Positions 5,098 through 27,185 of a stretch of 55,347 nucleotides of DNA are shown here, one piece after another. Each line of letters opens with the position of its first letter. Position 1 is the stretch's first letter. The notes beneath the pieces are model-generated. The model did no database searches and was not told the DNA's origin. It saw only the letters and a list, made by a program, of their open reading frames with translations. The stretch covers positions 1 through 55,347 of the forward strand of contig CAYMYS010000005.1 of NCBI GenBank assembly GCA_964394725.1, written 5' to 3'. The DNA is from an uncultured Syntrophaceae bacterium (GTDB taxonomy: Bacteria > Desulfobacterota > Syntrophia > Syntrophales > UBA2210). The position numbers and the translations under genes are program-made.

Positions 5098-6564
5098 TTA
5101 ACTACTATAAGATGCCTGGTGCATCTGTTCGACTAATTCGGCTGTTTCCTTCTTCGGCGGAGCGGTGAGCAGAGATCCGACAACCATGAAAATAATCGAT
5201 GCAGGCAGCGAGATCAAGATGTCTGCCAGGAAGGGAACGATCTTCATTGTGTGAACAATAAGAAAGACTGCAAACCCGCCAAAGCAACTCAGGAATCCAC
5301 CAACGTTGTTGCCGCGTTTCCACCAGATACCGAAGGCAATCGGGACGGCAAAGGCGGAACCCGTTCCTTCCACGAGGAGACCGACGATATAGCCGATACT
5401 CTTTGTCTCGAAAAGCGCCCCGACCATTGTAAGCACACCGATAATCGCGATCACGTACTTTGACAGACGAATGACGTCTTTTTCCGTCATTTCGGGCTTG
5501 AAAAATTTCTTTACGATATTCCCGGAAAACTCTACACCACAGGCAAGGAGCATCCCGCCTGTCGTCGACATGATCGCTGCAAGAATGCCTGCAACGGCAA
5601 ATCCTCTAATTATAGGGGGAAAGAGTTCATTCATAACGACAATGTATGTCCTGTCTACGTTGCCCAGTTTCGGCGCAATAATCAGACATGCACCTGCAAC
5701 ACCGATATATCCGATAAGATGGAATGCCCAGCAGAGCACAGAAGTCAATGCGACACCGCGACGTCCTGAATCGACATTCCGTGCCGTAAAATGACGCATG
5801 ATAATATGAGGTGATGAAAAGCAGAAAAATGATACTCCGAAGAACATGCCGATATAAGTCCAAATCGACAGCTTCGGACTGATCCCCAGAAAATCGGGTT
5901 TTATCGCCAGCGCCTTCGGCATCATCTCGCCTATGCCTCCGAAGTGAATTATGGCGACAATCGACAATCCCACCATGAAGCTGAACATGATAATGCCCTG
6001 CATGAAGTCGGTCCATGTTATGGAAAGCATTCCCGCCATGACCACATAGCCTACATAGACGCATCCGATCAGGACAACGGCTGACTTAAAGGGAATTCCC
6101 AGTATGTAGGAACCTGCGAGACCGCCACCGATCAACTGCGGTACGATGTAACAGGGGTATAGAATGAGAATGATGATACTGCTCGCCAGACCGGTGGAGG
6201 TTCCAAAACGCTCCGCCAGGAAGTTTGAAAGTGTGAACTTACCCCTCATTTCACTATAGCGTCGCAACGGTCCACTTACAAGGAGCATCGACCAGGCATA
6301 GCCGAAGGAGAGCGCACAGCCCACACCAATTGTAGTGAATGACCACCCCATCTTGTATGCCAGACCGAGAAACCCGAGGAAGCTTGCGGCGCTGACATTG
6401 GATGCAAACATAGCAAAGCCGTTTACCACCGAGTTGATGTTCTGCCCCGCACCCCAGTATTCCGCTTCACCTGTAGATGCCTTCTTTGAAAAGTGCACCC
6501 CAATCCATATACAAAGAGCAAAGTATAAAACAGTTATGATTAATTCTGTGACCATAATTTCCAT
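5098..6564 (-). CDS. Sodium:solute symporter family transporter (ActP/PutP-like)
   Basis: ~13 hydrophobic segments; SAASFLG, WTDFMQG and GILAAIMST motifs; AAGGAGG RBS. Confidence 0.9.
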   Translation of the reverse strand: MEIMVTELIITVLYFALCIWIGVHFSKKASTGEAEYWGAGQNINSVVNGFAMFASNVSAASFLGFLGLAYKMGWSFTTIGVGCALSFGYAWSMLLVSGPLRRYSEMRGKFTLSNFLAERFGTSTGLASSIIILILYPCYIVPQLIGGGLAGSYILGIPFKSAVVLIGCVYVGYVVMAGMLSITWTDFMQGIIMFSFMVGLSIVAIIHFGGIGEMMPKALAIKPDFLGISPKLSIWTYIGMFFGVSFFCFSSPHIIMRHFTARNVDSGRRGVALTSVLCWAFHLIGYIGVAGACLIIAPKLGNVDRTYIVVMNELFPPIIRGFAVAGILAAIMSTTGGMLLACGVEFSGNIVKKFFKPEMTEKDVIRLSKYVIAIIGVLTMVGALFETKSIGYIVGLLVEGTGSAFAVPIAFGIWWKRGNNVGGFLSCFGGFAVFLIVHTMKIVPFLADILISLPASIIFMVVGSLLTAPPKKETAELVEQMHQASYSS

Positions 6565-6582
6565 AGTTGCATCCCCTCCTTT

Positions 6583-6798
6583 TTATTTATCTTTTTCCCA
6601 TTTACGAAGCACCGGAATTGCGGCATATAAAAGTACGACGCCCGCTAAACCACCACCACCAATCAACCAGGTTACCAACGGGATCCCCAGCCACTCCGCC
6701 TTCGAAGCGAAGGCAAAAAACGAAAGAATCGCATAACCCATCACTATAATAAACAAATAAAGTCCGGGATTCTTCAGTGATGCAAATTCCTTTTTCAT
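6583..6798 (-). CDS. Small two-TM membrane protein preceding the symporter (YjcH/DUF485-like position)
   Basis: 71 aa, two hydrophobic helices, AAGGAG RBS, 18 bp upstream of the symporter start. Confidence 0.7.
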   Translation of the reverse strand: MKKEFASLKNPGLYLFIIVMGYAILSFFAFASKAEWLGIPLVTWLIGGGGLAGVVLLYAAIPVLRKWEKDK

Positions 6799-7008
6799 AA
6801 AACACTCCTTTCCCTGTTAATGAATAGATTTTCAAACCTGCTGTCATGGCATACCCGGAAACGCCTCTGTCTCCTGCTTCCAGCGCGGCATACTAAATAC
6901 AAAATACGCATTTTTACAATCGGGTTACGTCTCTTTTTTGTTTAGGATTACGCATCCCTCATATATGGGAATATATGAATATTAGACGTAACGATTCAGG
7001 AAATACTT

Positions 7009-7027
7009 CATAGGACTATGTCCTATG
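7009..7027. promoter_or_regulatory. Perfect inverted repeat CATAGGAC-TAT-GTCCTATG, candidate regulator site
   Basis: 8-3-8 palindrome between the response regulator stop and the transporter operon start. Confidence 0.5.
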
Positions 7028-7080
7028 CTTCCAGAGGGAAATCAAACACAGTGATGAGATAAGGGAGTAATGGCGGGATG

Positions 7081-7728
7081 TTAACCGATTAATTTGTTCT
7101 GAATAGCGTAAAGCGTTATCCCGGCGTTGTTCTTCATTTTCATCTTTTCCAGGATATTATTTCGGTAGGTGCTGATGGTCTTGACGGAAAGAGACAGCTC
7201 ACCCGCAATCTCAGTGACTGTTTTTCCCAATGCGATCATCAGCATAACCTGGTATTCACGATCTGAAAGTGTTTCATGGGGGAGCTTGTCTGTGTACTTA
7301 TCGAGATAATAGGTCAATTTTTCCGCAAGAGAGTGACTTACGTATCTGCCGCCTTTGGCAACTTTACGAATAGCCGCAATAAGTTCATGAGGTGCACTCG
7401 ACTTTGTCAGATATCCCGATGCGCCTGCGCGAAATGCCCTCACTGCATATTGTTCTTCTGGATATATACTTACAATTAATACAGGCACTTGTGTGTGTTT
7501 GACCTTTAATTCCTTTAATATCTCCAGACCGTCTCTGCCGGGCATGGAAATGTCGAGCAGCATGATATCGTATGTGTTCTTTTCCACCAAATCGAGCACC
7601 TCTTGACCATTACTCGCTTCATCGGAAATCACCATGTCGTATTCATCGGAGAGCGTTTTTTTAAATCCCTCTCGGACAATGGGATGATCGTCGGCTAACA
7701 GGATATTTATCTTCTTAATCTTCTTCAT
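7081..7728 (-). CDS. NarL/FixJ-family response regulator (REC + LuxR HTH)
   Basis: LADDHP, LLDISMP, GYLTK and LSDREYQV..SVKTISTY motifs. Confidence 0.93.
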   Translation of the reverse strand: MKKIKKINILLADDHPIVREGFKKTLSDEYDMVISDEASNGQEVLDLVEKNTYDIMLLDISMPGRDGLEILKELKVKHTQVPVLIVSIYPEEQYAVRAFRAGASGYLTKSSAPHELIAAIRKVAKGGRYVSHSLAEKLTYYLDKYTDKLPHETLSDREYQVMLMIALGKTVTEIAGELSLSVKTISTYRNNILEKMKMKNNAGITLYAIQNKLIG

Positions 7729-9173
7729 AGAACTTCTCCCAGTTGTGTGCAGGGCATAATGACCTCGATAACGGTTCCCCTGCCCTTTTCCCCATCAATT
7801 GAAACAGTGCCCCCCCAGTGATGGACGCGCTCCTTGATACCGATCAGGCCGAATGAATCGAGTTTCATCAAGTCTTCATCGCCTATCCCTTTACCATTAT
7901 CCCTTACACACAATGTAATCGTGTTCCCTTCCTCTGTAAGGCCGATCGATACTGCTGTAGCGGCTGCATGGCGAGAAATATTCGTTAGCGTCTCCTGGAA
8001 AATCCGGAATATTGCAGTAGACAGGTCGGGATCAAGGTCTATTTCTTCAGGTTCAACGCTGATATTACAGGATATGCCTGTCCGCTCCTGAAAATCTTTT
8101 GCCTGCCAGTCGATGGCGGCTACGAGGCCGAGGTGATCCAGCATAGCCGGTCTGAGATCCTTGTATATCCTGTGCAGTGTTTCCATTGTTATGGAAATAA
8201 GATTGGACATCGATTCAATCTTGTCATCCAGGGATTTCTCTTCAGGAGATATATGCTTTCGTAAGAGAATGATATCCGTATTCAGCGCCGTGAGCAGTTG
8301 CCCCAATTCATCATGAAGCTCACGAGCGATATGGGTCCTCTCCTTTTCACGAACCAATTGGAGATGTGCGGAGAGTTTTTGCAGTTGAATCCGCGATTCT
8401 TCCAGTTTTCGCTCCGCCCGTTTACGGTGTGTAATGTCTTCGTAGATGGCCACAATGCTCTTCCCGGGTTGAACATTACCAATTCCCGATACGCTGATCA
8501 GACACTCGATTTCCGTACCATCTTTTCTTCGACAGGGAAACTCCTGAGCGAATGCGCCCGACCTTTGTATTACGGGATATATCATTCTAACAATTTTTCC
8601 ATACTCTTCTTCGTTTCGGTACAATACGCGAATGCTTTTCCCGATTAATTCCTCGGCATCCCATCCAAAGACGGATGCTACACCGCTATTGGCAAAGAAG
8701 ACATGCCGATCTCTCAATCCTATGACTGCATGGGGAATGGCTTTTAAAATGGATGATTCGAGGGTTTCCAGTTCGAGAACCTTATGCCAGGATTTCATCT
8801 GTTCGGTGATATCGATTGAACTTCCCAGGACCGCACGTCTGCCCCTGTAACGAATGGATGTTACCGCTCCATCTATCCACCGAAGTTCACCATCCCTTGT
8901 TGTTATTCTGAATTTATAGGATGAATCGCCGTCATCTTTCAGCATCTTGATGGCATTTTTCCGTAAAGATTTTCTATCGTCGGGATAAATATAGTTACTG
9001 AAATCCCCACCCAGAAGTTCCTCCTTTGCCCGTCCCAGACACAGTAAGGTATAGTTATTTACAAACTGGATTTTCCCATCCTGCATTATGTACATACCCA
9101 CATGGGAATTCTTCTCCAAGGACTTGAACAAGCTCCCTTCAAAGATTGTATTTTGCAATATGCCCTCATCCAT
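7725..9173 (-). CDS. Soluble PAS-PAS sensor histidine kinase (HisKA_3)
   Basis: Two PAS/PAC domains, IARELHDELGQ H-box, ETLTNISRHA, VRDNGKG and FGLIGIKER; no TM segments; 4-bp overlap with the regulator. Confidence 0.92.
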   Translation of the reverse strand: MDEGILQNTIFEGSLFKSLEKNSHVGMYIMQDGKIQFVNNYTLLCLGRAKEELLGGDFSNYIYPDDRKSLRKNAIKMLKDDGDSSYKFRITTRDGELRWIDGAVTSIRYRGRRAVLGSSIDITEQMKSWHKVLELETLESSILKAIPHAVIGLRDRHVFFANSGVASVFGWDAEELIGKSIRVLYRNEEEYGKIVRMIYPVIQRSGAFAQEFPCRRKDGTEIECLISVSGIGNVQPGKSIVAIYEDITHRKRAERKLEESRIQLQKLSAHLQLVREKERTHIARELHDELGQLLTALNTDIILLRKHISPEEKSLDDKIESMSNLISITMETLHRIYKDLRPAMLDHLGLVAAIDWQAKDFQERTGISCNISVEPEEIDLDPDLSTAIFRIFQETLTNISRHAAATAVSIGLTEEGNTITLCVRDNGKGIGDEDLMKLDSFGLIGIKERVHHWGGTVSIDGEKGRGTVIEVIMPCTQLGEVL

Positions 9174-9286: not shown

Positions 9287-10663
9287 TTACTCTTTATTTT
9301 GCTTGAGCGCCTTTTTAAATACTTCAAATTCGAGGCCACCCATCTTTGAGTTTATCATTACAAAACCCACCAGAGATGATATTATGCAGGCAGACATAAA
9401 ACCTGTTCCGTAGAAACTGTATCCCATGTGTATAGACAGCAAGGTTACACCGGCGTTTAAGGCGAAAAATAATAGATTCATTTTAACCAATGCGGCATAG
9501 TCGTCGAGGTACTGAAGCACGAGAAAGCAAAAGAAATAGAGCGAGAAAAAGATCGTGCCCAGTAAGAGGTAATGGAATACAAAGGGGTTTCTCCAGGGAA
9601 GGGGGATAACCTTTATGTAAATCAGAAAGAGAATAAACATCGATATGCCGCCGTAGAAGATAAATATTGACGATGAGACATAGTTTATCCCCCTAACCAG
9701 GTTATATTTTTCAAGGGCAAGTTCCCTGAAGGGAAAATTGTTTGAAATCTTGAAGATAAAGGCCTCATAAGGTCCGGTAATTTTGCCTTTGACACCCCGG
9801 TATACAAGGAAAGAGCCGATCATCATTATTAAGAGAGCCACAAAAAAGGGGAGATCATATTCCGTGTAATATCGAAAGAATGTGTCAACTGCACCCCTTT
9901 CCCCCAGCATATACCAGAATATGAATTTATCACTCCAGAAGCCCAGACTGAATGTGAAGATGGCAAATCCCAGATTTACCAGACCCCGGCGTTTGAGGAA
10001 ACTCCAGTCAATCGCAATGGGATCTCTGAGATAGACCTTGATTACATATGAAGCCCCCAGGGCTACCGGTATCACTGCAGTCAGAGAAAATATGGCCAAA
10101 AGGCCCTTGGTGTCAACGGGCCTCACTATAAGAAATAGTGTCAGGGTTGTTACGATTCCAAACGTAAATACCATGAGAAAGATCTTTTCTCTCTTGAGAG
10201 AACTCAGGGTCGTACTTATACACCATAAAAGAGACATCAGTGCAGTCATCCCTACAAAACCTACCTTGAGATCGAATGGAATCTGTGAGAGGGGAAAGAC
10301 AATAAGAGACGAAACGACGGAGGAGATGATAACAATGAGTATGCACAATGAGATCATCCCGTCTGTTATTGCCTGATATCTCATAAGAAATATCTCATCC
10401 GCCATGTAACGGGTAAACATCGCATGAAATGGAGACGATATGATCAGCGACAATGCCGTCGCATAGGTGATCAAGAGATAAAAGAGTACGGGAGACGTTC
10501 CGTGCACGAGAAAGACGGTAATACCCATTATTCCCAGGCATACAACGGTGAGGAGCCAGGGACCCACAGCCTCCATGACATTGACGGCTTCTTTTATAAG
10601 TGAACCACTGAGCGTCCTTTTCTGGACGTATTTCTCCAGTAAGAAATTAATCCCTGCCATCAA
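9287..10663 (-). CDS. pelG: PelG-like exopolysaccharide transporter
   Basis: MAGINF.L.K N-terminus and GPW(L)L motif as in PelG; WSDKFIFW and YDLPFFVA motifs; ~12 TM; lies downstream of pelF. Confidence 0.8.
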   Translation of the reverse strand: MMAGINFLLEKYVQKRTLSGSLIKEAVNVMEAVGPWLLTVVCLGIMGITVFLVHGTSPVLFYLLITYATALSLIISSPFHAMFTRYMADEIFLMRYQAITDGMISLCILIVIISSVVSSLIVFPLSQIPFDLKVGFVGMTALMSLLWCISTTLSSLKREKIFLMVFTFGIVTTLTLFLIVRPVDTKGLLAIFSLTAVIPVALGASYVIKVYLRDPIAIDWSFLKRRGLVNLGFAIFTFSLGFWSDKFIFWYMLGERGAVDTFFRYYTEYDLPFFVALLIMMIGSFLVYRGVKGKITGPYEAFIFKISNNFPFRELALEKYNLVRGINYVSSSIFIFYGGISMFILFLIYIKVIPLPWRNPFVFHYLLLGTIFFSLYFFCFLVLQYLDDYAALVKMNLLFFALNAGVTLLSIHMGYSFYGTGFMSACIISSLVGFVMINSKMGGLEFEVFKKALKQNKE

Positions 10664-12113
10664 TAAACTCCCCGTAAATCTCCCTGTATCTGCGAATGAC
10701 CAACTCTTCCCGATAATAATTTTCTATCCTTTTGATGCCCTTTTCCGCCATTCTGTTTGCCAGTTCCGTATCCCTCAATATATGTATCGTGGCCTCAGCT
10801 ATTCCCTTTGGATCCATAACCCTCTCAACAACGCCTGCTTCACCAATGTCATCATTATTCCCGTAAATAAGTTCACGGCAGGCACCCACATCTGTTGCCA
10901 CAACAGGGACACCACTAGCCATTGCCTCCATCACCACGAGGGGCATTGCCTCTTTTATACTGGTGAGAAGCAGGACATCCATCGTCTTGTAATATTCTTT
11001 AACGTCGGCCCTGCCGGTAAAGGTAACAGCGCTTTCGAGATGGAGCATTTTCGTCAGCTCCTCGCATTCCTTGTAATAATCGGGCTGTTCATCCGTTGGA
11101 CCTATAACATAACCATGAACATCTCCATACCCTTGCTTTATAATTGCCATTGCCTGGATAAATGTCTTTACGTCTTTGACACTGTCGACCCTCCCTACCA
11201 TGCCCACTATTCTCGGTGTCTTCGTACATCGTCGCTTTCGTGCCTCCTTGAAACGCTCAATATCGATGCCGTTGGGTATTACCGTAATGGCATTCCCATC
11301 GGCCCCGTATTCCATTTGCAGCCTTCTGTTTCCCTCATAGAGCGTTATCATGCGATCACAGGTTTTGTACTGCCAGAGACATATTGCGGTAAAAAAGTCG
11401 ATCCACATATCCTTCAGGTAGGGATCATCGAGCCATTGAGATTTCAATAACTCCATCTCTCTCTCCTGAAGATAGATACCGTGTTCCGTAATCATCGATT
11501 TTCTCCCGTACATTGCCGATTTAATGCAGGCAATGAGCCCTCCGTAGCCCGTACTGGGAGAATGGTATATGGTCGCCGTTGGAATCTTTGCGATCATGGA
11601 GAGGAGCCTGAAGAGGATGAGATGTATATTTCGATGATTATAGAAGTATTTAATAAATCCCACATCACCTCGGAATTCTTCATATATATGTGTAAGGAGT
11701 GAAAATGCGTCCTCGTCATTGAGAAAGTTGTTGAATATATTTGGAGAATAATCGGTTATCAGTTCCTTCACAAATAACAGATTTTCATGTGAGACTGTAT
11801 TATCCCGCCAGTCCATCATGAGCCGGAAAAGTCTGTCCGACAATAAACGCCACTTCCTCGCCGACAGCCTCAATGGTTTCGCATTTTCTATTTCGTCGTA
11901 ATCGAATATGACGTATTCATCGTAGGAAATCACATTTTTGGGGAGGGTATATTTCATATCTTCCCTGCGTTTTTTCTCTGCAATGAGCGCCACCACTGAG
12001 AAGGTAAATTCCGTCGTATTCTCCATAAGCCACTGAAGCCATGATGAAACCCCTCCGGTGACGTAGGGATAACTGCCCTCTACAACCAGGCAGATGTCAG
12101 CACTCTTTTCCAT
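10647..12113 (-). CDS. pelF: PelF-like GT4 glycosyltransferase
   Basis: ADICLVVEGSYPYVTGGVSSW, STGYGG, TEHGIY..ER, GRV..VKDVKTFI and EAMPLVVMEAMASG motifs. Confidence 0.92.
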   Translation of the reverse strand: MEKSADICLVVEGSYPYVTGGVSSWLQWLMENTTEFTFSVVALIAEKKRREDMKYTLPKNVISYDEYVIFDYDEIENAKPLRLSARKWRLLSDRLFRLMMDWRDNTVSHENLLFVKELITDYSPNIFNNFLNDEDAFSLLTHIYEEFRGDVGFIKYFYNHRNIHLILFRLLSMIAKIPTATIYHSPSTGYGGLIACIKSAMYGRKSMITEHGIYLQEREMELLKSQWLDDPYLKDMWIDFFTAICLWQYKTCDRMITLYEGNRRLQMEYGADGNAITVIPNGIDIERFKEARKRRCTKTPRIVGMVGRVDSVKDVKTFIQAMAIIKQGYGDVHGYVIGPTDEQPDYYKECEELTKMLHLESAVTFTGRADVKEYYKTMDVLLLTSIKEAMPLVVMEAMASGVPVVATDVGACRELIYGNNDDIGEAGVVERVMDPKGIAEATIHILRDTELANRMAEKGIKRIENYYREELVIRRYREIYGEFIDGRD

Positions 12114-13096
12114 GTCTTACAAGCCTCTTTTACCTTATCGGGGATGAACACTCCTCCGGCTGTCTCTATCAACGCGTAAAGATTATCGAAGGCATCTCTG
12201 TCTTTAAGCCTTATGGAAAGCTCAAACTCGTAGGTTATCCATTTCGGGAAAAAGTAATTCCCCCCTGCCCTGATTTGTTTGTAAATTTCTTCCGCCTCTT
12301 TTATCCTGTCCGATTTAAGGAGAAGTTTTACTGCAAATTGCGCGTCATCTTCAGATCCACCTTCTTTGTAGGCGATTACTGCATAATGACAGGCACTCTT
12401 TTCATAAAACTGCTTCATAATGGGATCACATAAATCAAGATTGTATATCTCATGATAGAGGCTTGCAAGTCGACCTGGTATTGTCTCGTCGGGATTTTTC
12501 ATTGCCTCCAGTTCCGCTATGTCAGATAAGATTGAATCAATCTTCTTGCTTATCATGTCGATGGCCATGAGAATGACGCTCTGATAGGGGCTGAAACGTA
12601 TGATATATTTAAGAATGCTCGATTTTATTGATGACCATTCCGACTCTCCCAGGAGTCCTATCATCTTAAAGGCATCTTCCCTTTTCATGCTCTTTATCAA
12701 GAGTGCCTCCGAAATGGGCAAAATTCTACCGGAGAATTGCCTTGTCATAACTCTCAGTATTTTTTTATCTACCTTTTCGAAAGATTCACTCCTTACGGGG
12801 TATACCGGTACAAAGCGGAGAAAGAGGGGGAGGCACAGGGCGGTAACGGGACCTGCCATAGGAATGAAGGCAATGGCGATAATAAAAATGGTAAACCCTC
12901 TGGTAATAATTTTCTCTCTCAGAAGTCGGTCCGATGCGGCAAGGGAAATATATATCAAATAGGTCAGTCCCATGGTTACACCGTGGGCAAAATAAAACTG
13001 GACGAGATCGGTCCAGCCTTCTATTCCCCTCAGAAAGAAGACGACTGCTGCAATTTCCGATATTGTCCAGTAAAAGTAAAGCTTACTGCCCATCAT
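12080..13096 (-). CDS. PelE-like membrane protein with TPR-like helical C-terminus
   Basis: N-terminal TM helices then an all-helical domain; occupies the pelE position between pelD-like and pelF genes with overlapping start/stop codons. Confidence 0.6.
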   Translation of the reverse strand: MMGSKLYFYWTISEIAAVVFFLRGIEGWTDLVQFYFAHGVTMGLTYLIYISLAASDRLLREKIITRGFTIFIIAIAFIPMAGPVTALCLPLFLRFVPVYPVRSESFEKVDKKILRVMTRQFSGRILPISEALLIKSMKREDAFKMIGLLGESEWSSIKSSILKYIIRFSPYQSVILMAIDMISKKIDSILSDIAELEAMKNPDETIPGRLASLYHEIYNLDLCDPIMKQFYEKSACHYAVIAYKEGGSEDDAQFAVKLLLKSDRIKEAEEIYKQIRAGGNYFFPKWITYEFELSIRLKDRDAFDNLYALIETAGGVFIPDKVKEACKTWKRVLTSAWL

Positions 13097-14285
13097 ATCT
13101 CCCGATAGTTATATTCTCTTCAGTTTTTTTCAGGCGCTCTATGACTGCATGTACATATTTCTCTTCAGTCATGGAAAGGAATACAACCATCTCGCTATCG
13201 TTCAGCATATAGAATTCATCATACATCCGTAAGGTCCTTGACAGTTTATAGACCAGTCTTTCCGAGATCATTCCCGAAATGTGGAGCAGACAGAAGGCTA
13301 GTTTATACTTTTTATAGCGGGCAACGTTTCTCTTCAGAAAGGTTTGAGACACATCGGGACGATAGGCAATAACCGATGCGAACCGGCTGTATGACCGCAT
13401 TTCTTCTCTGTAAAGTTGATTCTCGATACTGTTTTTCACCCAGAAAGCCGCTATCTTGAGCAGATTGATCAAATCTTCCGAAAGGTTGATGAATCTGATC
13501 TCTTCCACAATGATGATATATCTCAGCTGTTCCGATGATGAAAGTATCGGTATTGCCATAACCAGTTTGTTACCAAACTCCCTGGGCACAATGACCTCCT
13601 GTTTGGAAGCGGCGACACGTAAGATTTCCGGCATATCTTCCGTTTTCCATTTGAGTACCTCGGGTAGCGTCGTCGAACCGAAATAAGACAACCGGTTGAA
13701 TTCGTGCTTGGTAACTGGTTCATATATGCTTGATTTTTCCACATGACAGTGTGCGTATAGGACGTACAGTATCTCGTCAAACAATGTCATGGTGTCCGTG
13801 ATTCCCGACAGCCTTCTGAAGGCCTGATACATGATCTTTGGTGATTCCATATCGGTCAGCACTTCATGGAAGGCATCGGTTAGGGCCCTGTCCTTTTCCG
13901 ACAGATCGATACTAAGCGTTTCGATACGTTTTTCGAGTATCCTGTTGGTAATATCAGTGTTTGTGGTCTTTAGTTCGTTTGCCGACCGCACAAAGCCGGT
14001 TACAAGGATGGTTACGAGAAAGAAACTCGTTTCCATGTAGTTTTGAGTCAAAAAGATAAAGGAACTTTGCTTTATAAAGGCGTAGATGAAAAGGCCGGAA
14101 AAGATCACTGTTCCGAGGGCGCCTTTAATGCCGTAATAGAGCGTAAAAATAATGCCGACAAAGCATAAGAGAAGAAATTGAAATTTTAAGGTGGTTATTC
14201 CTCTGGTGTGGAGAAACCAAATAGCACTATAAAGAGCAATAAGTTCACATAGGAAAACGACGTTTTTCAACCATGTACGCTTCAT
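13083..14285 (-). CDS. PelD-like c-di-GMP receptor (TM + coiled coil + GAF + degenerate GGDEF)
   Basis: ~4 TM helices, a coiled-coil stretch and a GAF-like region. The C-terminal domain has RMYD (RxxD I-site) followed 5 aa later by NDSEM in place of GGDEF. Confidence 0.7.
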   Translation of the reverse strand: MKRTWLKNVVFLCELIALYSAIWFLHTRGITTLKFQFLLLCFVGIIFTLYYGIKGALGTVIFSGLFIYAFIKQSSFIFLTQNYMETSFFLVTILVTGFVRSANELKTTNTDITNRILEKRIETLSIDLSEKDRALTDAFHEVLTDMESPKIMYQAFRRLSGITDTMTLFDEILYVLYAHCHVEKSSIYEPVTKHEFNRLSYFGSTTLPEVLKWKTEDMPEILRVAASKQEVIVPREFGNKLVMAIPILSSSEQLRYIIIVEEIRFINLSEDLINLLKIAAFWVKNSIENQLYREEMRSYSRFASVIAYRPDVSQTFLKRNVARYKKYKLAFCLLHISGMISERLVYKLSRTLRMYDEFYMLNDSEMVVFLSMTEEKYVHAVIERLKKTEENITIGRYDGQ

Positions 14286-14341
14286 TTACCGGTTCCGTTC
14301 GTAAGATACTTCTAAAAGGGCCAAAACTGGGATTTTATATG

Positions 14342-14680
14342 TCAATTGCTAAAGGATTTAACGGCAACGTTCTTTGACTTATGTATTTCGATGACTCTAT
14401 CAAGCCGGATGAGTTTAAATAATGCCACAATCTCTTCGGCGGCATTGCACATTTTCACGTCTCCCTTTTCCGCCCTGGCCTTTCTCAAACAAGAGAGGAT
14501 GGCACCACAACCGGAGCTGTCGACGAATCTGACATGAATCATATCTAATACAGCGCGAGGATTTTCCTTTATGATCGGTTCTATATCGCGTTTAAATTCA
14601 GGACTGTTAGTCGCATCAAGCGTATTGTCGGGGATGGTTATCACCTCGACATTTCCAATTCTTTCACGATCGAATTTCAT
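14342..14680 (-). CDS. STAS anti-sigma factor antagonist (RsbV/SpoIIAA family)
   Basis: 112 aa; LDM..V.FVDSSG.G motif with the phospho-acceptor serine. Confidence 0.9.
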   Translation of the reverse strand: MKFDRERIGNVEVITIPDNTLDATNSPEFKRDIEPIIKENPRAVLDMIHVRFVDSSGCGAILSCLRKARAEKGDVKMCNAAEEIVALFKLIRLDRVIEIHKSKNVAVKSFSN

Positions 14681-14804
14681 AGTCTCTTCTCCTCGTGTAT
14701 TTTCTTTCAGCCTATCATCCTAACGTGCTAGGATCAATCATATTTCCGAAAGGATACAACTTTTCACCACTTATCAACTGAATAAGTTACCCAGCGGGTC
14801 ATCT

Positions 14805-15983
14805 TCAATTATTTTTCTTGATGGATTCCTTAACCTTGACAACGACACAGGTCATATCGTCTGAGAATGTGTCGCATCCCGAAAATCCTGTCACCGTTAC
14901 CTTTATTTTTTTTATAAAATCGTCACAGTCACGTTTGTAGTTCTTTTTGACAAGGTCTTCCAGCCGCTCTATTCCAAAGAGTTCCCCCCTGCTATTGTGC
15001 GCTTCCGTGATTCCATCGGAATAGAAAAAAAACAGATCTCCTTCCTTGAAGGAGGCCGAACTTTGCCGGTATACCTCATCTGCCCAAAAACCGAGGGGCA
15101 TGTTTTCCCCCTCCAACCTGATACACTTTCCATCATCATGCTTAAAGTGAAGTGTGCTTGTATGTCCGCAGTTTATAAAGCAAACCTTTTTGCTTCGCAT
15201 ATTCAAGCGTAAATAGAAGAGCGTTACAAAACTTTCCAGCCTGATCAACTCATCTGTAATTTCGGAATGAATCCTATTGACTATCTCTGCCGGTTCGGGG
15301 GGTATACAACTTTCCGATCCTATGATTATTTGATTGACGGCCCGGAGCAATTGATTCTTTGTTGCCGCCCCGAACATGGCCGCAGGGATTCCCTTGCCCA
15401 TAACATCCGCCACAATGACATCAAATATTTCATCATTGTATTTAATAAAGTCGTAGAAATCGCCATCGATCTTCTGTGATGGAAGCGTCAACGCAGCTAT
15501 TTCTACTCCGGGAATATCCTTGGGTGGGTCCTCAAGCAGGAGCGTTCTTTGTATTTCGTATCCTATTCTGGCAATCTGCCTTTCCCGTTCCTTCCTGACG
15601 TCCATCTCTTTCTTCAGTGTCAGAGCAGACTTGACCCGTGCCAGCAGTTCAACCTTATTGAAGGGCTTTTTAATATAATCCATCGCACCGGCATCAAAGG
15701 CGGCCTGAAGTGATGTTTCATCCGTCTTTCCGGTAACCATGATTATGGGAATATCTTCAAACCTGTTATCCGATTTTATCTTTTGACATGCCTCGATTCC
15801 GTCTATCTCGGGCATCATGATATCCATGAGTATCAGGTCTACAGCGTTATCGGCATCATCCAATACCTGAAATGATTCCCGGCCCGACGATGCAAGCATA
15901 CTGTCCCCGTATCCCGATTTTTCCAGTATCGCGGCAAGAAGGATTCTACTATCCGACGAATCATCAACGATAAGAATATTCAT
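14805..15983 (-). CDS. Response-regulator receiver + PP2C/SpoIIE phosphatase (RsbU-like)
   Basis: ILIVDDS and LILMDIMMP receiver motifs; IDGDFYD, ADVMGKG, YSDGITEA and DDMT PP2C motifs. Confidence 0.92.
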   Translation of the reverse strand: MNILIVDDSSDSRILLAAILEKSGYGDSMLASSGRESFQVLDDADNAVDLILMDIMMPEIDGIEACQKIKSDNRFEDIPIIMVTGKTDETSLQAAFDAGAMDYIKKPFNKVELLARVKSALTLKKEMDVRKERERQIARIGYEIQRTLLLEDPPKDIPGVEIAALTLPSQKIDGDFYDFIKYNDEIFDVIVADVMGKGIPAAMFGAATKNQLLRAVNQIIIGSESCIPPEPAEIVNRIHSEITDELIRLESFVTLFYLRLNMRSKKVCFINCGHTSTLHFKHDDGKCIRLEGENMPLGFWADEVYRQSSASFKEGDLFFFYSDGITEAHNSRGELFGIERLEDLVKKNYKRDCDDFIKKIKVTVTGFSGCDTFSDDMTCVVVKVKESIKKNN

Positions 15984-16166
15984 AATACTCCCTATATTTT
16001 GTTGATAGCGTTCTCCGCAAAATCTATTTGTATAATAAATTGTTTATTATTATACCACACTTGTTACCGTAAATTTCAAGGGGTTCGGAAGAATTATCGA
16101 TAATATTTGTCTTGACCCTTGGTATACCCTCTGCTAGAAATCACGCTATTGTCTATTATTTAATAG

Positions 16167-16358
16167 TTATGGTTCTGTAAAAAGTAAGATTTTCTCTCTG
16201 GAAGACTATTCCGGGGATGATTTCTATGCTTGGCTAAAAATCTAAAACTCGTGCTAAAGCACTCAAACAATTAAATTTTATTAACGCCAATTACCGTAAT
16301 CATCTGTTTCCAGAAATGCTCAAAGCCGTTTGAAAATGACTTTTAACCGGTCTGTCAA
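16167..16358 (+). mobile_element. MITE-like dispersed element, copy A
   Basis: Hand alignment to 29623..29806 (reverse strand) gives ~82% identity over ~168 aligned bases plus an 8-bp indel. Degenerate ~21-bp terminal inverted repeats; TAG flanks both ends. Confidence 0.65.
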
Positions 16359-16459
16359 TAGTTAATATATGCGATTAACCCCTCACGATCGAAATGATAG
16401 GGTAAGGCAACAGTTCAGTGTTTACAGTGATCGGTTTGCGCTTAAAATAACAGAAGATA

Positions 16460-16490
16460 CTCGTTCCCACGCTCCTGCATGGGAATGCAT
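16460..16490. repeat. REP-like palindrome CTCGTTCCCACGCTCCTGCATGGGAATGCAT
   Basis: TTCCCA.GC / GC.TGGGAA stem with one mismatch. Resembles the TTCCCACGCTC..CGTGGGAA REP-type repeats I recall from many Proteobacteria. Confidence 0.55.
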
Positions 16491-16592
16491 AGGGGATTGA
16501 AATAATGGGAAGAAGCCGCTACAAAATCCCTGAATCTGCGACCCATGGAATCCCTGGATCATCTTCTACAACTAATTTAGAGAAGAAAAATC

Positions 16593-24803: not shown

Positions 24804-27185
24804 ATGCTCAAAATCAAGAAGACACCAAATGGAAAGAAGTTAATCTCGGAAAAGCTTGTTTCATTATTTCCGCTGGGGAGAGACCTCATTTTTCAGAGAT
24901 GGGTCCTCGCAATTGTGATGAGTCTTGTCGTTTCATTGATACTCTACCCTCAGATTATTCACCGCAGCCTCCCTGTCTACACGGTGGATTCTATTGCAAC
25001 AGGAAATATAAAGGCAGATCGGGATTTTCTTGTAGAGGACAAGGCATCAACAAAACAGAAAAGGTTGATAGAAATAGAGAAGGTTAGACCCCTCTATGAC
25101 TATGACAGCGATATGCCGGCCAGGTTGGGAATCATTCTGGCAAAGGCATTTCTCAAGGCAGGTGAAGACTTCAGAAAGGCCGAAGCACAAAAAGACCCCG
25201 CTTTTGAAAATAATTTAAGGACCAATTTCGAGAACCTTTCACAGATTAAGCTTACCGACAATGAATACAAAAGGCTTTACCAGTATAAATTTTCCTTTGA
25301 CATATCCAACGATGCAGTAAAGCTGATTTACGCTCTCTATAACCGAGGACCGATAAGCAATGAATCAATCAAGAGCATTATCCGCGACAAGGGTATCGCA
25401 ATCCGTGACATAAAGACCCAGGAAGAGAAGGAGAAAAACGATCTTTCATCGATACGGGTTATGGCCGATGTCCATAATCTCATCCTCGAGGATTCAAAGA
25501 CTGTTCTTAAAGACAGGTCAAAGCGCATAATACCGATAATCGTTGCCCTGGCTACCAGGATGGTTCGTCCCGATCTGACATTCGCAAAAAATGCCACGGA
25601 AAGCAGAAAGCAGATAGCCTGGGATAATATCAAACCGGTATTTTACAAGGTTCAGAAAAATGAGATGATTATCAGGGAAGGAGAGAAGATAACCCCTTCC
25701 GACCTGGACAAGCTCAACATACTCTTTCAGGACCGGGAGGGGAAGAGCATGTTAAACTTCTCCGCCTTCCTCGGTATGTTTCTTACCGTTTTACTGTTAT
25801 CATATATCCTCTACAAGATGTTTGACCACTTTCTCAGATCCTTAAAACAGACAAATATCGACCTGCTGCTTCTGAGCCTGACGGTGATACTTCAGTTGCT
25901 TCTGGCAAAGGCAGGTATATTTATTTGTGAATCAATCGAGTATACATTTAATATCGTCTCGGCAGATACAACCATCTTCGCTATACCGATGACCGTTGGC
26001 GCCATGCTTATTGCCCTCCTTCTCAACAGGCGAATGGGCCTGATTTTTGCTATTGGTGCTTCTTTTCTGTTATCTTTCCTCTTCGAAGATAAATTGTCGA
26101 TGTTCCTCTTTTCCTTCATCGGGAGCGCCGTAGCTACACATCGAATTGTACATTGCAAACAGCGTTCCGACTTTTTCAAGGCCGGTCTGTTGATTGGTCT
26201 GGTGAATATGGCAATTATCATCAGTTCCTCACTATTGTCGGGTAATCTATTCATCACCGATACACTCCTCAAGCTTCTCATGGGATTCACCGGAGGTATC
26301 TTGTCGGGAATTATAGTATCGGGCATAGTCCCCGTTTTTGAGGCATCCTTCGGCTATACCACGGACATTAAACTACTGGAGCTTGCAAACCTCAATCAGC
26401 CTATTTTTCAACAGATGATCATGGTGGCGCCGGGAACCTATCATCACAGTATCGTTGTGGCATCCATGGTCGAGGCCGCAGCGGAGGCTATCAATGCCAA
26501 TTCTCTTCTGGCAAAAGTCAGCGCCTATTATCATGACATAGGCAAGTTGAAAAAGCCGATTTATTACATAGAAAATCAACAAAACTGGGAAAACAAGCAC
26601 GATTCCCTCACACCACAGATGAGCAGCCTCGTGATAACATCTCATGTGAAGGAAGGATGCGCCCTTGCACAGAAGTACAAACTGGGAAGACCCATCATTG
26701 ACATAATTAGGCAACATCATGGTACGAGCATCGTAAGCTATTTTTACGAAAAGGCAAAAAAGGATAAAGATGCATCCGATCAGTCGACTCTTGAAAGTGA
26801 TTTCAGGTATCCCGGCCCAAAACCCCTTTCAAGGGAAGCGGGACTTGTTCTCCTGGGCGATGTCATTGAGGCATCGTCACGAACACTAAAAAATCCCACC
26901 CCTTCGAGGATAAAAAATCACGTTATAAGCCGCATCAGACAGGTGCTTGCCGAGGGACAGCTCGATGAATCGGAATTAACGCTGCGCGATCTCAGCAAGA
27001 TCGGGGAGAGCTTCAACAGAATCCTTACAGGCATATTCCATCACAGGATAGACTATGACGAGCCTTCTATTGAGGTGAACGGGGGGAGTAAAGAAAACAA
27101 TGTCGGTATTAGTAAAAAATCAGCAAGAAAAAATAAAAATAAACGTTCCAAAGATACGGAGCTATCTATCCAGGATCTTAGTTAA
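24804..27185 (+). CDS. 7TM-HD (HDIG) membrane phosphohydrolase, PgpH/YqfF-like
   Basis: Extracytoplasmic domain, 7 TM helices, APGTYHHS..YYHDIGK and HHGT motifs; located between phoH and ybeY. Confidence 0.9.
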   Translation: MLKIKKTPNGKKLISEKLVSLFPLGRDLIFQRWVLAIVMSLVVSLILYPQIIHRSLPVYTVDSIATGNIKADRDFLVEDKASTKQKRLIEIEKVRPLYDYDSDMPARLGIILAKAFLKAGEDFRKAEAQKDPAFENNLRTNFENLSQIKLTDNEYKRLYQYKFSFDISNDAVKLIYALYNRGPISNESIKSIIRDKGIAIRDIKTQEEKEKNDLSSIRVMADVHNLILEDSKTVLKDRSKRIIPIIVALATRMVRPDLTFAKNATESRKQIAWDNIKPVFYKVQKNEMIIREGEKITPSDLDKLNILFQDREGKSMLNFSAFLGMFLTVLLLSYILYKMFDHFLRSLKQTNIDLLLLSLTVILQLLLAKAGIFICESIEYTFNIVSADTTIFAIPMTVGAMLIALLLNRRMGLIFAIGASFLLSFLFEDKLSMFLFSFIGSAVATHRIVHCKQRSDFFKAGLLIGLVNMAIIISSSLLSGNLFITDTLLKLLMGFTGGILSGIIVSGIVPVFEASFGYTTDIKLLELANLNQPIFQQMIMVAPGTYHHSIVVASMVEAAAEAINANSLLAKVSAYYHDIGKLKKPIYYIENQQNWENKHDSLTPQMSSLVITSHVKEGCALAQKYKLGRPIIDIIRQHHGTSIVSYFYEKAKKDKDASDQSTLESDFRYPGPKPLSREAGLVLLGDVIEASSRTLKNPTPSRIKNHVISRIRQVLAEGQLDESELTLRDLSKIGESFNRILTGIFHHRIDYDEPSIEVNGGSKENNVGISKKSARKNKNKRSKDTELSIQDLS

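Follow-up and report, generated by a model that had tools for sequence, protein, structure and literature searches.

The 55,347-nucleotide stretch of DNA analysed here (the window), from contig CAYMYS010000005.1 of an uncultured Syntrophaceae bacterium, carries on its minus strand a gene for a REC-PP2C phosphatase (14805-15983), a gene for a single-domain STAS protein (14342-14680) and, after a 56-bp gap, four overlapping genes of a Pel-like exopolysaccharide synthase, pelD-E-F-G. Pel is a widespread biofilm matrix polymer, and to our knowledge its only established post-translational control is the binding of cyclic di-GMP (c-di-GMP) to PelD. The initial annotation of this stretch had singled out the phosphatase and STAS genes as a pair co-directional with pelD; their open reading frames, domains and coordinates, the 56-bp gap with no terminator predicted in it, and the retained DSSG motif of the STAS protein were all confirmed.

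Two of the synthase genes are identified by curated profiles. PelF (10647-12113, minus strand), a GT4 glycosyltransferase with DUF3492 and Glycos_transf_1 domains, matches NF038011 at 1.2e-126 and 423.6 bits against a cut-off of 100, while PelG (9287-10663, minus strand) matches PF16933 at 2.1e-65 and 221.9 bits against a cut-off of 29. By sequence, neither PelD nor PelE matched anything in Pfam, NCBIfam or the PDB; for PelD this agrees with a published observation that BLAST and HMMER miss divergent PelD proteins (PMC7112168). The predicted c-di-GMP receptor encoded at 13083-14285 (minus strand) comprises four transmembrane helices, a coiled coil, a GAF domain and a degenerate GGDEF domain with RMYD (the RxxD motif) and NDSEM. 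Its AlphaFold2 model (43 homologues; predicted local distance difference test score 73.7) retrieved the P. aeruginosa PelD structures 4etz, 4dmz and 4dn0 as top Foldseek matches in the PDB, with E values of 5e-8 to 1e-6 (best 4.7e-8), and R353 and D356 of the RxxD motif are invariant in 43 PelD homologues (alignment A1). Judged by this model, the product of 13083-14285 is PelD-like, with a predicted c-di-GMP site. The PelE-like membrane/helical-repeat protein (12080-13096, minus strand) is assigned by position and size only and has no hidden Markov model match; proteins 39-54% identical to it occupy the same position in 17 of 17 related loci. The PelA, PelB and PelC modification and export components are not in the window.

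The STAS protein is HsbA/SypA-like and 112 residues long (PF01740, 3.9e-15; TIGR00377 anti-sigma-factor antagonist, 4e-14; minus strand). Its conserved stretch is FVDSSGCGAILSCLRK, and its FVDSSGCG motif contains the candidate phosphorylated serine, S55 (codon 14516-14518); homologues linked to pel keep an FVDSSGCGA(I/L)LSCLRK block, with DSSG retained in all of them. Of the STAS proteins encoded before pelD in relatives, the nearest share 67-77% identity with it, those of most deeper lineages 41-51% and that of Desulfacinum 31%. The 56-bp STAS-pelD spacer (14286-14341, minus strand) holds no predicted terminator or promoter, and where its counterpart in the related loci L029 and L031 measures 55 bp, those of other relatives range from 13 to 134 bp; on the other side, 124 bp separate the PP2C stop codon from the STAS start.

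The phosphatase itself (392 residues, minus strand) combines Pfam Response_reg (9.2e-30) and SpoIIE/PP2C (1.2e-38) domains, with the REC phospho-acceptor present as D54 and the PP2C motifs DGDFYD, ADVMGKG, YSDGITE and SDDMT intact; its only related NCBIfam name is Pseudomonas RssB, at 83 bits against a cut-off of 700. The non-coding region upstream (15984-16592, minus strand), shared with a divergent radical-SAM gene, holds a candidate promoter that was read by eye from the sequence: TTGAAA (about 16074-16079), a 19-nt spacer and TGgTATAAT (16049-16057). A promoter consensus scan of 15984-16592 gave no enrichment over shuffles, and the site is a candidate only. From this arrangement we infer that regulator, STAS and pelDEFG would be co-transcribed; a search for RNA runs that might show this returned none. 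In L029/L030 an 846-residue REC-MshEN-T2SSE ATPase-REC gene (5258-7798, minus strand) lies between the radical-SAM gene and the regulator; it is absent in L031 and in the window, where a 610-bp non-coding stretch is found instead.

The initial annotation had further described the pair as having no anti-sigma kinase. For the window copy this holds, as no RsbW-type kinase, sigma factor or anti-sigma factor was found in window positions 1-27 kb; as a property of the system we reject it, because relatives fuse an RsbW-type kinase to the same protein and the window keeps a relic of that kinase. In the closest syntenic relatives, L029/L030 and L031, the regulator has 527 residues in the order REC-PP2C-HATPase_c_2, and P0066 (77% identical, 524 residues), the closest match among 5.8 billion proteins, likewise has the kinase domain. 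More broadly, relatives' regulators are 524-579 residues long with a C-terminal HATPase_c_2, and the kinase domain is present in roughly 105 of the 120 best regulator matches. DNA alignment with L029 and L031 places the difference: about 333 bp are missing from the window in the stretch that runs from the PP2C domain's end to the ribosome-binding site of STAS. A kinase-domain relic (14767-14826, minus strand) overlaps the new stop codon (14805-14807) and extends into the 124-bp gap. Read in a shifted frame, it gives IHQEK (14812-14826) followed by KMTRWVTYSVDKW (14767-14805), which is out of frame with the open gene and starts from the final base of the new stop codon. A tblastn search with the C-terminus of P0066 aligned its QMTDRVTYSVDKW with the window's KMTRWVTYSVDKW, with 10 of 13 positions identical, and IHQEK, just upstream in the same shifted frame, corresponds to IHRGE of P0066. 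By these alignments, the lesion is an internal deletion of about 106 codons with a frameshift, which removes the ATP-binding core of the kinase, and the fused kinase is the common state from which the kinase-free state appears to be a derived, lineage-specific departure.

The truncation does not look like an assembly error, since independent metagenome contigs agree over parts of the stretch. Logan's assembly of the best-matching run covers 14200-16100 with zero differences, and short contigs from two other salt-lake samples match at 98-100% identity (X2, 14668-14818 and 14789-14880; X4, 14766-14921). A tblastn search with the relatives' kinase domain found no further copy in the rest of the 97%-complete genome. 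The genome's sole stand-alone RsbW-like gene, C105:4247-4687 (146 residues; HATPase_c_2, 85 bits), encodes a protein only about 26% identical to the fused kinase domains, which rules it out as the relocated domain. This orphan lies between an HD_5-domain gene and rml (dTDP-rhamnose) genes (C105 2654-4687), with no STAS or sigma gene adjacent.

Deletion of the kinase, together with the frameshift in its relic, would also suit a decaying remnant, in which the switch died with its kinase, the genes are still open as the deletion is recent, and Pel is left under c-di-GMP and PelD alone. The relic (10/13) is as similar to P0066 as is the coding part (77%), which suggests that the deletion is indeed recent, and the window PP2C domain is 61-65% identical to those of L029 and L031, slightly less than the 71% that these two share. 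We nevertheless consider such a remnant unlikely, given what has been kept: each of the 27 PP2C alignment columns that show no variation in eleven relatives, the REC acceptor aspartate and the STAS DSSG motif. Compared with L029 and L031, the REC domain shows 73% identity and STAS 67-77%, next to 73% for PelD; at a nucleotide identity of about 70%, synonymous sites are saturated in this comparison. The differences between the window PP2C gene and a contig of run X3, a related sequence, fall almost exclusively on third codon positions, the pattern that purifying selection would leave. The family also includes further kinase-less REC-PP2C proteins of about 390-400 residues, in some cases beside a STAS gene (L050) and in others behind a hybrid kinase and an Hpt protein (L049), and kinase-less REC-PP2C and STAS pairs appear stable in L050 and in Desulfacinum (L026). 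Finally, the orphan RsbW-like kinase would be available in trans. On this evidence the REC-PP2C and STAS genes look functional, a recent loss of function being conceivable.

Conservation of the gene order was examined in 17 loci from genomes and 7 from metagenomes, with homologues located by searching metagenome and genome contigs. Homologues of the PelD-like protein form 62 clusters and come almost entirely from metagenome bins of Desulfobacterales/Thermodesulfobacteriota, with Desulfacinum hydrothermale in addition. Among 60 GTDB genomes that share the genus, family or order, none yielded a PelD homologue, and only two other genomes of 400 sampled from the phylum have one; the pel cluster is rare and patchy, and taxonomic relatives are uninformative. 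L029/L030 and L031 (73% PelD identity) share the order of the window, namely radical-SAM gene, regulator, STAS (112 residues in each), pelDEFG, PAS kinase, NarL regulator, small protein and symporter. The contig with the nearest PelD (L032, 80%) begins within a STAS gene. Regulator, STAS and pelD-E-F-G lie on one strand both where the regulator is a REC-PP2C-kinase protein (L015, L047, L029 and L031) and where it is an (FHA)-GAF-PAS-PAS-PP2C-kinase protein of 985-1146 residues (L012, L013, L014, L017 and L045). Desulfacinum (L026) has a STAS gene and a divergently oriented REC-PP2C gene just before pelD; no kinase was recognised beside this STAS, and the two upstream open reading frames have no Pfam match. 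In L044 (289-2714), genes for an Hpt protein, a 176-residue stand-alone RsbW-type kinase, STAS and REC-PP2C precede pelDEFG and a GH114 gene. These L044 proteins are only 20-27% identical to those of the window, a non-orthologous module in the same slot before pelD, which suggests independent recruitment or displacement.

Another type of locus has a 450-500-residue TPR protein before pelD instead of a phospho-switch (L016, L019, L022, L023, L025, L028 and L046). In the members of this sister clade that were checked, GH114 follows pelG, and L016, L018 and L023-L025 have a GGDEF-like region a few kb downstream.

On the PelD tree, module-bearing loci occur in four deep lineages and the module-less TPR type forms one derived clade. 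By this distribution the PP2C-STAS-pelD linkage is conserved and apparently old; the initial annotation had named absence of the linkage from relatives as a refuting observation, and it is instead present across all four lineages.

The regulator family is far larger than the PelD family. REC-PP2C-kinase proteins number more than 533 at E<=1e-40, and members without pel exist (L049 and L050). In L051 (3129-12193), a REC-PP2C-kinase regulator 53% identical to the window phosphatase lies with a STAS gene inside a Wzx/Wzy-type polysaccharide cluster (GT1, GT2, Wzy_C and flippase), and this module family may control exopolysaccharides more generally in Desulfobacterota. The size of the family and its members without pel are compatible with a module that controls a non-Pel target, whether a sigma factor or another global target, and adjoins pelDEFG as members of one biofilm regulon. 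The best-known modules of this kind, HsbR/HsbA and CrsR/CrsA, do act on sigma and anti-sigma factors, including RpoS and FlgM (PMC6482189). We regard a non-Pel target as quite improbable here. No sigma or anti-sigma gene was found in the window locus or in any related locus examined, STAS abuts pelD at 13-134 bp while the input domains vary, and the non-orthologous L044 module fills the same slot. Because STAS lies against pelD whatever the sensor, and no sigma or anti-sigma gene accompanies it, its partner is most likely the Pel machinery (PelD or PelF) or a linked cyclase.

A candidate for such a cyclase, and for the input to the phosphatase, came from a second Pel-like locus (L048), found on contig C37 of the same genome (207-14866, minus strand) via the proteins encoded beside pelG in relatives. 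This locus encodes a 1285-residue hybrid kinase (dCache-HAMP-PAS3-HisKA-HATPase-REC-REC), a REC-GGDEF cyclase with an intact GGEEF motif, and an Hpt protein (PF01627, 8.7e-9), in this order and all on the minus strand. Putative accessory genes follow on the same strand, in the order PelC-like lipoprotein, two GH114 hydrolases, two TPR proteins with homologues encoded beside pelG in relatives, and a 697-residue protein of unknown family, whose counterparts downstream of pelG in L013, L014 and L017 are 50-54% identical to it; no deacetylase domain was identified among the accessory proteins. C37 appears to hold the second half of a Pel-like system, so that the window pelDEFG is probably not a stand-alone synthase. 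The initial annotation had suggested that STAS might act through PelD or a cyclase, and the cyclase option thus gains a concrete candidate in the C37 REC-GGDEF protein.

The REC domains of the window phosphatase and the C37 cyclase are 54% identical (E 4e-44), compared with 37% for the genome's next-best REC. The C37 Hpt protein is 56% identical to the Hpt protein within the L044 pel locus, where Hpt adjoins the module, and in L049 histidine kinase, Hpt and REC-PP2C genes are adjacent. Given this REC paralogy and gene neighbourhood, we infer that the C37 hybrid kinase and Hpt are the likeliest phosphodonor to the phosphatase REC, in preference to the PAS-PAS-HisKA_3 kinase encoded downstream of pelG (7725-9173, minus strand), to which the initial annotation had tentatively assigned that role. 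A kinase-free design in which this PAS-PAS histidine kinase phosphorylates the REC domain has in its favour that the gene is close by and is also found in the two closest syntenic relatives; we consider it very improbable. The gene for this kinase and the one for its own NarL-type regulator overlap, the pair's best NCBIfam names are MctS/MctR, and a small-protein and SSS symporter unit follows. Furthermore, the kinase is not present in the more distant module-bearing pel loci (L012-L017, L044, L045 and L047), the paralogous REC has its own hybrid kinase and Hpt on C37, and the kinase-free state appears derived rather than a design. The unit at 5098-9173 (minus strand; PAS kinase, NarL regulator, 70-residue protein and SSS symporter) keeps its synteny in L029 and L031; its probable role is the control of monocarboxylate uptake, unrelated to Pel.

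Switches of this kind have well-studied precedents. A REC-PP2C-RsbW-type kinase protein with an adjacent STAS protein is described for HsbR/HsbA (PA3346/PA3347), which work with HptB and the cyclase HsbD, and for CrsR/CrsA of Shewanella oneidensis; in P. aeruginosa the chain runs from HptB to HsbR to HsbA to HsbD (PMC6482189). Relatives of the window module encode exactly the same domain order with an adjacent single-domain STAS protein, all three domains being present in L029, L031, L015, L047 and P0066, whereas the window protein has REC and PP2C only and is, by domain content, a truncated HsbR-like protein. The window does have the adjacent single-domain STAS with a phosphorylatable serine (DSxG), and the likeness may extend to an Hpt protein and a GGDEF cyclase in the network, with Hpt in L044 and L049 and both Hpt and REC-GGDEF on C37. 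Unlike HsbR/HsbA, the module here lies within a pelDEFG operon, not in an hsb/flagellar context, and no link to FlgM, RpoS or a sigma factor was seen. The HsbR likeness of the window module is one of domain order and neighbourhood.

The second precedent is SypE/SypA in the syp locus of Vibrio fischeri, where the phosphorylation state of the STAS protein gates biofilm formation and the target of SypA is still unknown (PMC4517449, PMC10120452). As there, a STAS protein and a kinase/phosphatase response regulator lie within an exopolysaccharide locus in the relatives' pel loci and in L051, with the window keeping the phosphatase half only. The domain order of SypE is kinase-REC-PP2C, whereas that in relatives is REC-PP2C-kinase and that in the window REC-PP2C; syp, moreover, is not a Pel-type synthase system. 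The module also differs from the classical RsbU/RsbV/RsbW-sigma B and SpoIIE/AA/AB-sigma F systems, as the cognate sigma factor and stand-alone kinase are not in the window or related loci, except that L044 has the kinase, with no sigma factor. Against canonical Pel systems (P. aeruginosa pelABCDEFG; B. cereus pelDEA(DA)FG), the synthase compares well in that PelF and PelG pass curated cut-offs and PelD has GAF and degenerate GGDEF domains with RxxD, and differs in that pelDEFG is separated from the putative accessory genes, with GH114, TPR and PelC-like genes all on another contig.

Full-text literature searches returned no paper joining Pel genes with STAS, partner switching, HsbA or SypA, and the two main Pel phylogenomic papers contain no mention of 'STAS' or 'anti-sigma'. 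The kind of switch is already known from HsbR/HsbA, CrsR/CrsA and SypE/SypA; its wiring to Pel is not described in the papers searched, and the serine-phosphorylation control layer on a Pel-like system that the initial annotation had proposed stands as a reasonable suggestion. The points specific to the window genome are the kinase-deleted allele and the split two-locus wiring.

Taken together, we think it probable, with some reserve, that the regulator and STAS form a degenerate partner-switching module of the HsbR/HsbA type, wired firmly to the pelDEFG operon at its 5' end. In the ancestral form, as reconstructed from relatives, one protein would combine an input (REC or FHA-GAF-PAS), a PP2C phosphatase and an RsbW-type serine kinase, and would set the phosphorylation state of the adjacent STAS protein, with REC phosphorylation selecting kinase or phosphatase activity. 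One phospho-form of STAS would then act on Pel production, most likely post-translationally, by binding PelD, PelF or a diguanylate cyclase, echoing the binding of HsbD by phosphorylated HsbA and the action of SypA in the syp locus. Because the kinase has been removed while REC-PP2C and STAS are intact, STAS in the window genome is predicted to be held unphosphorylated, unless the C105 orphan RsbW-like kinase acts in trans. Input to REC would come from the C37 dCache/PAS hybrid histidine kinase and Hpt, such that one phosphorelay may control both the supply of c-di-GMP to PelD and the STAS switch. Unphosphorylated STAS would leave Pel on under SypA-like logic and off under the logic of phosphorylated HsbA and HsbD, and the sequence cannot choose between the two.

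Several observations weigh against this degenerate partner-switching module. About half of the PelD family's pelDEFG loci (the TPR clade and L020) are without it, and most of the more than 533 members of the REC-PP2C-kinase family are probably not beside pel; adjacency to pel alone leaves the STAS target unfixed. Without a cognate kinase the phosphatase has no obvious substrate state, and the module may be heading toward decay in the window lineage. Lastly, the consensus scan of the minus strand, which found no terminator-like site in the 124-bp or the 56-bp gap, is a weak tool, and so is the promoter scan. A bolder version of the proposal, which we offer tentatively as a possibility and would not ourselves expect, makes STAS a direct phosphorylation-dependent subunit of the Pel synthase, or a gate, acting on the GAF/degenerate-GGDEF part of PelD or on PelF; c-di-GMP and the state of STAS would then both be needed, with one Hpt phosphorelay behind them, and the window allele would be a natural 'locked' variant.

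With its interchangeable sensors and its conserved place at the head of pelDEFG, the partner-switch module suggests that a synthase-dependent polysaccharide machine receives a second control input. The window genome offers a natural experiment on this input, its kinase half having been deleted and its phosphatase and STAS kept, and the linked locus with Hpt, cyclase and hybrid kinase supplies concrete candidate partners. A related arrangement is carried by a cultured organism, Desulfacinum hydrothermale DSM 13146.

Elsewhere in the genome, HATPase_c_2 matches on C145, C176 and C168 were considered as a SypE-like protein and rejected as ordinary histidine-kinase fragments. The genome's other single-domain STAS gene, C91:7427-7825, adjoins the gene for a 627-residue protein, which, judged by eye from its sequence, looks like a GH13 sucrose phosphorylase. 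Within the window, beside a PhoH-like gene, positions 24804-27185 (plus strand) encode a 793-residue seven-transmembrane receptor with an intracellular HD hydrolase (7TMR-HDED, 7TM-7TMR_HD and HD domains).

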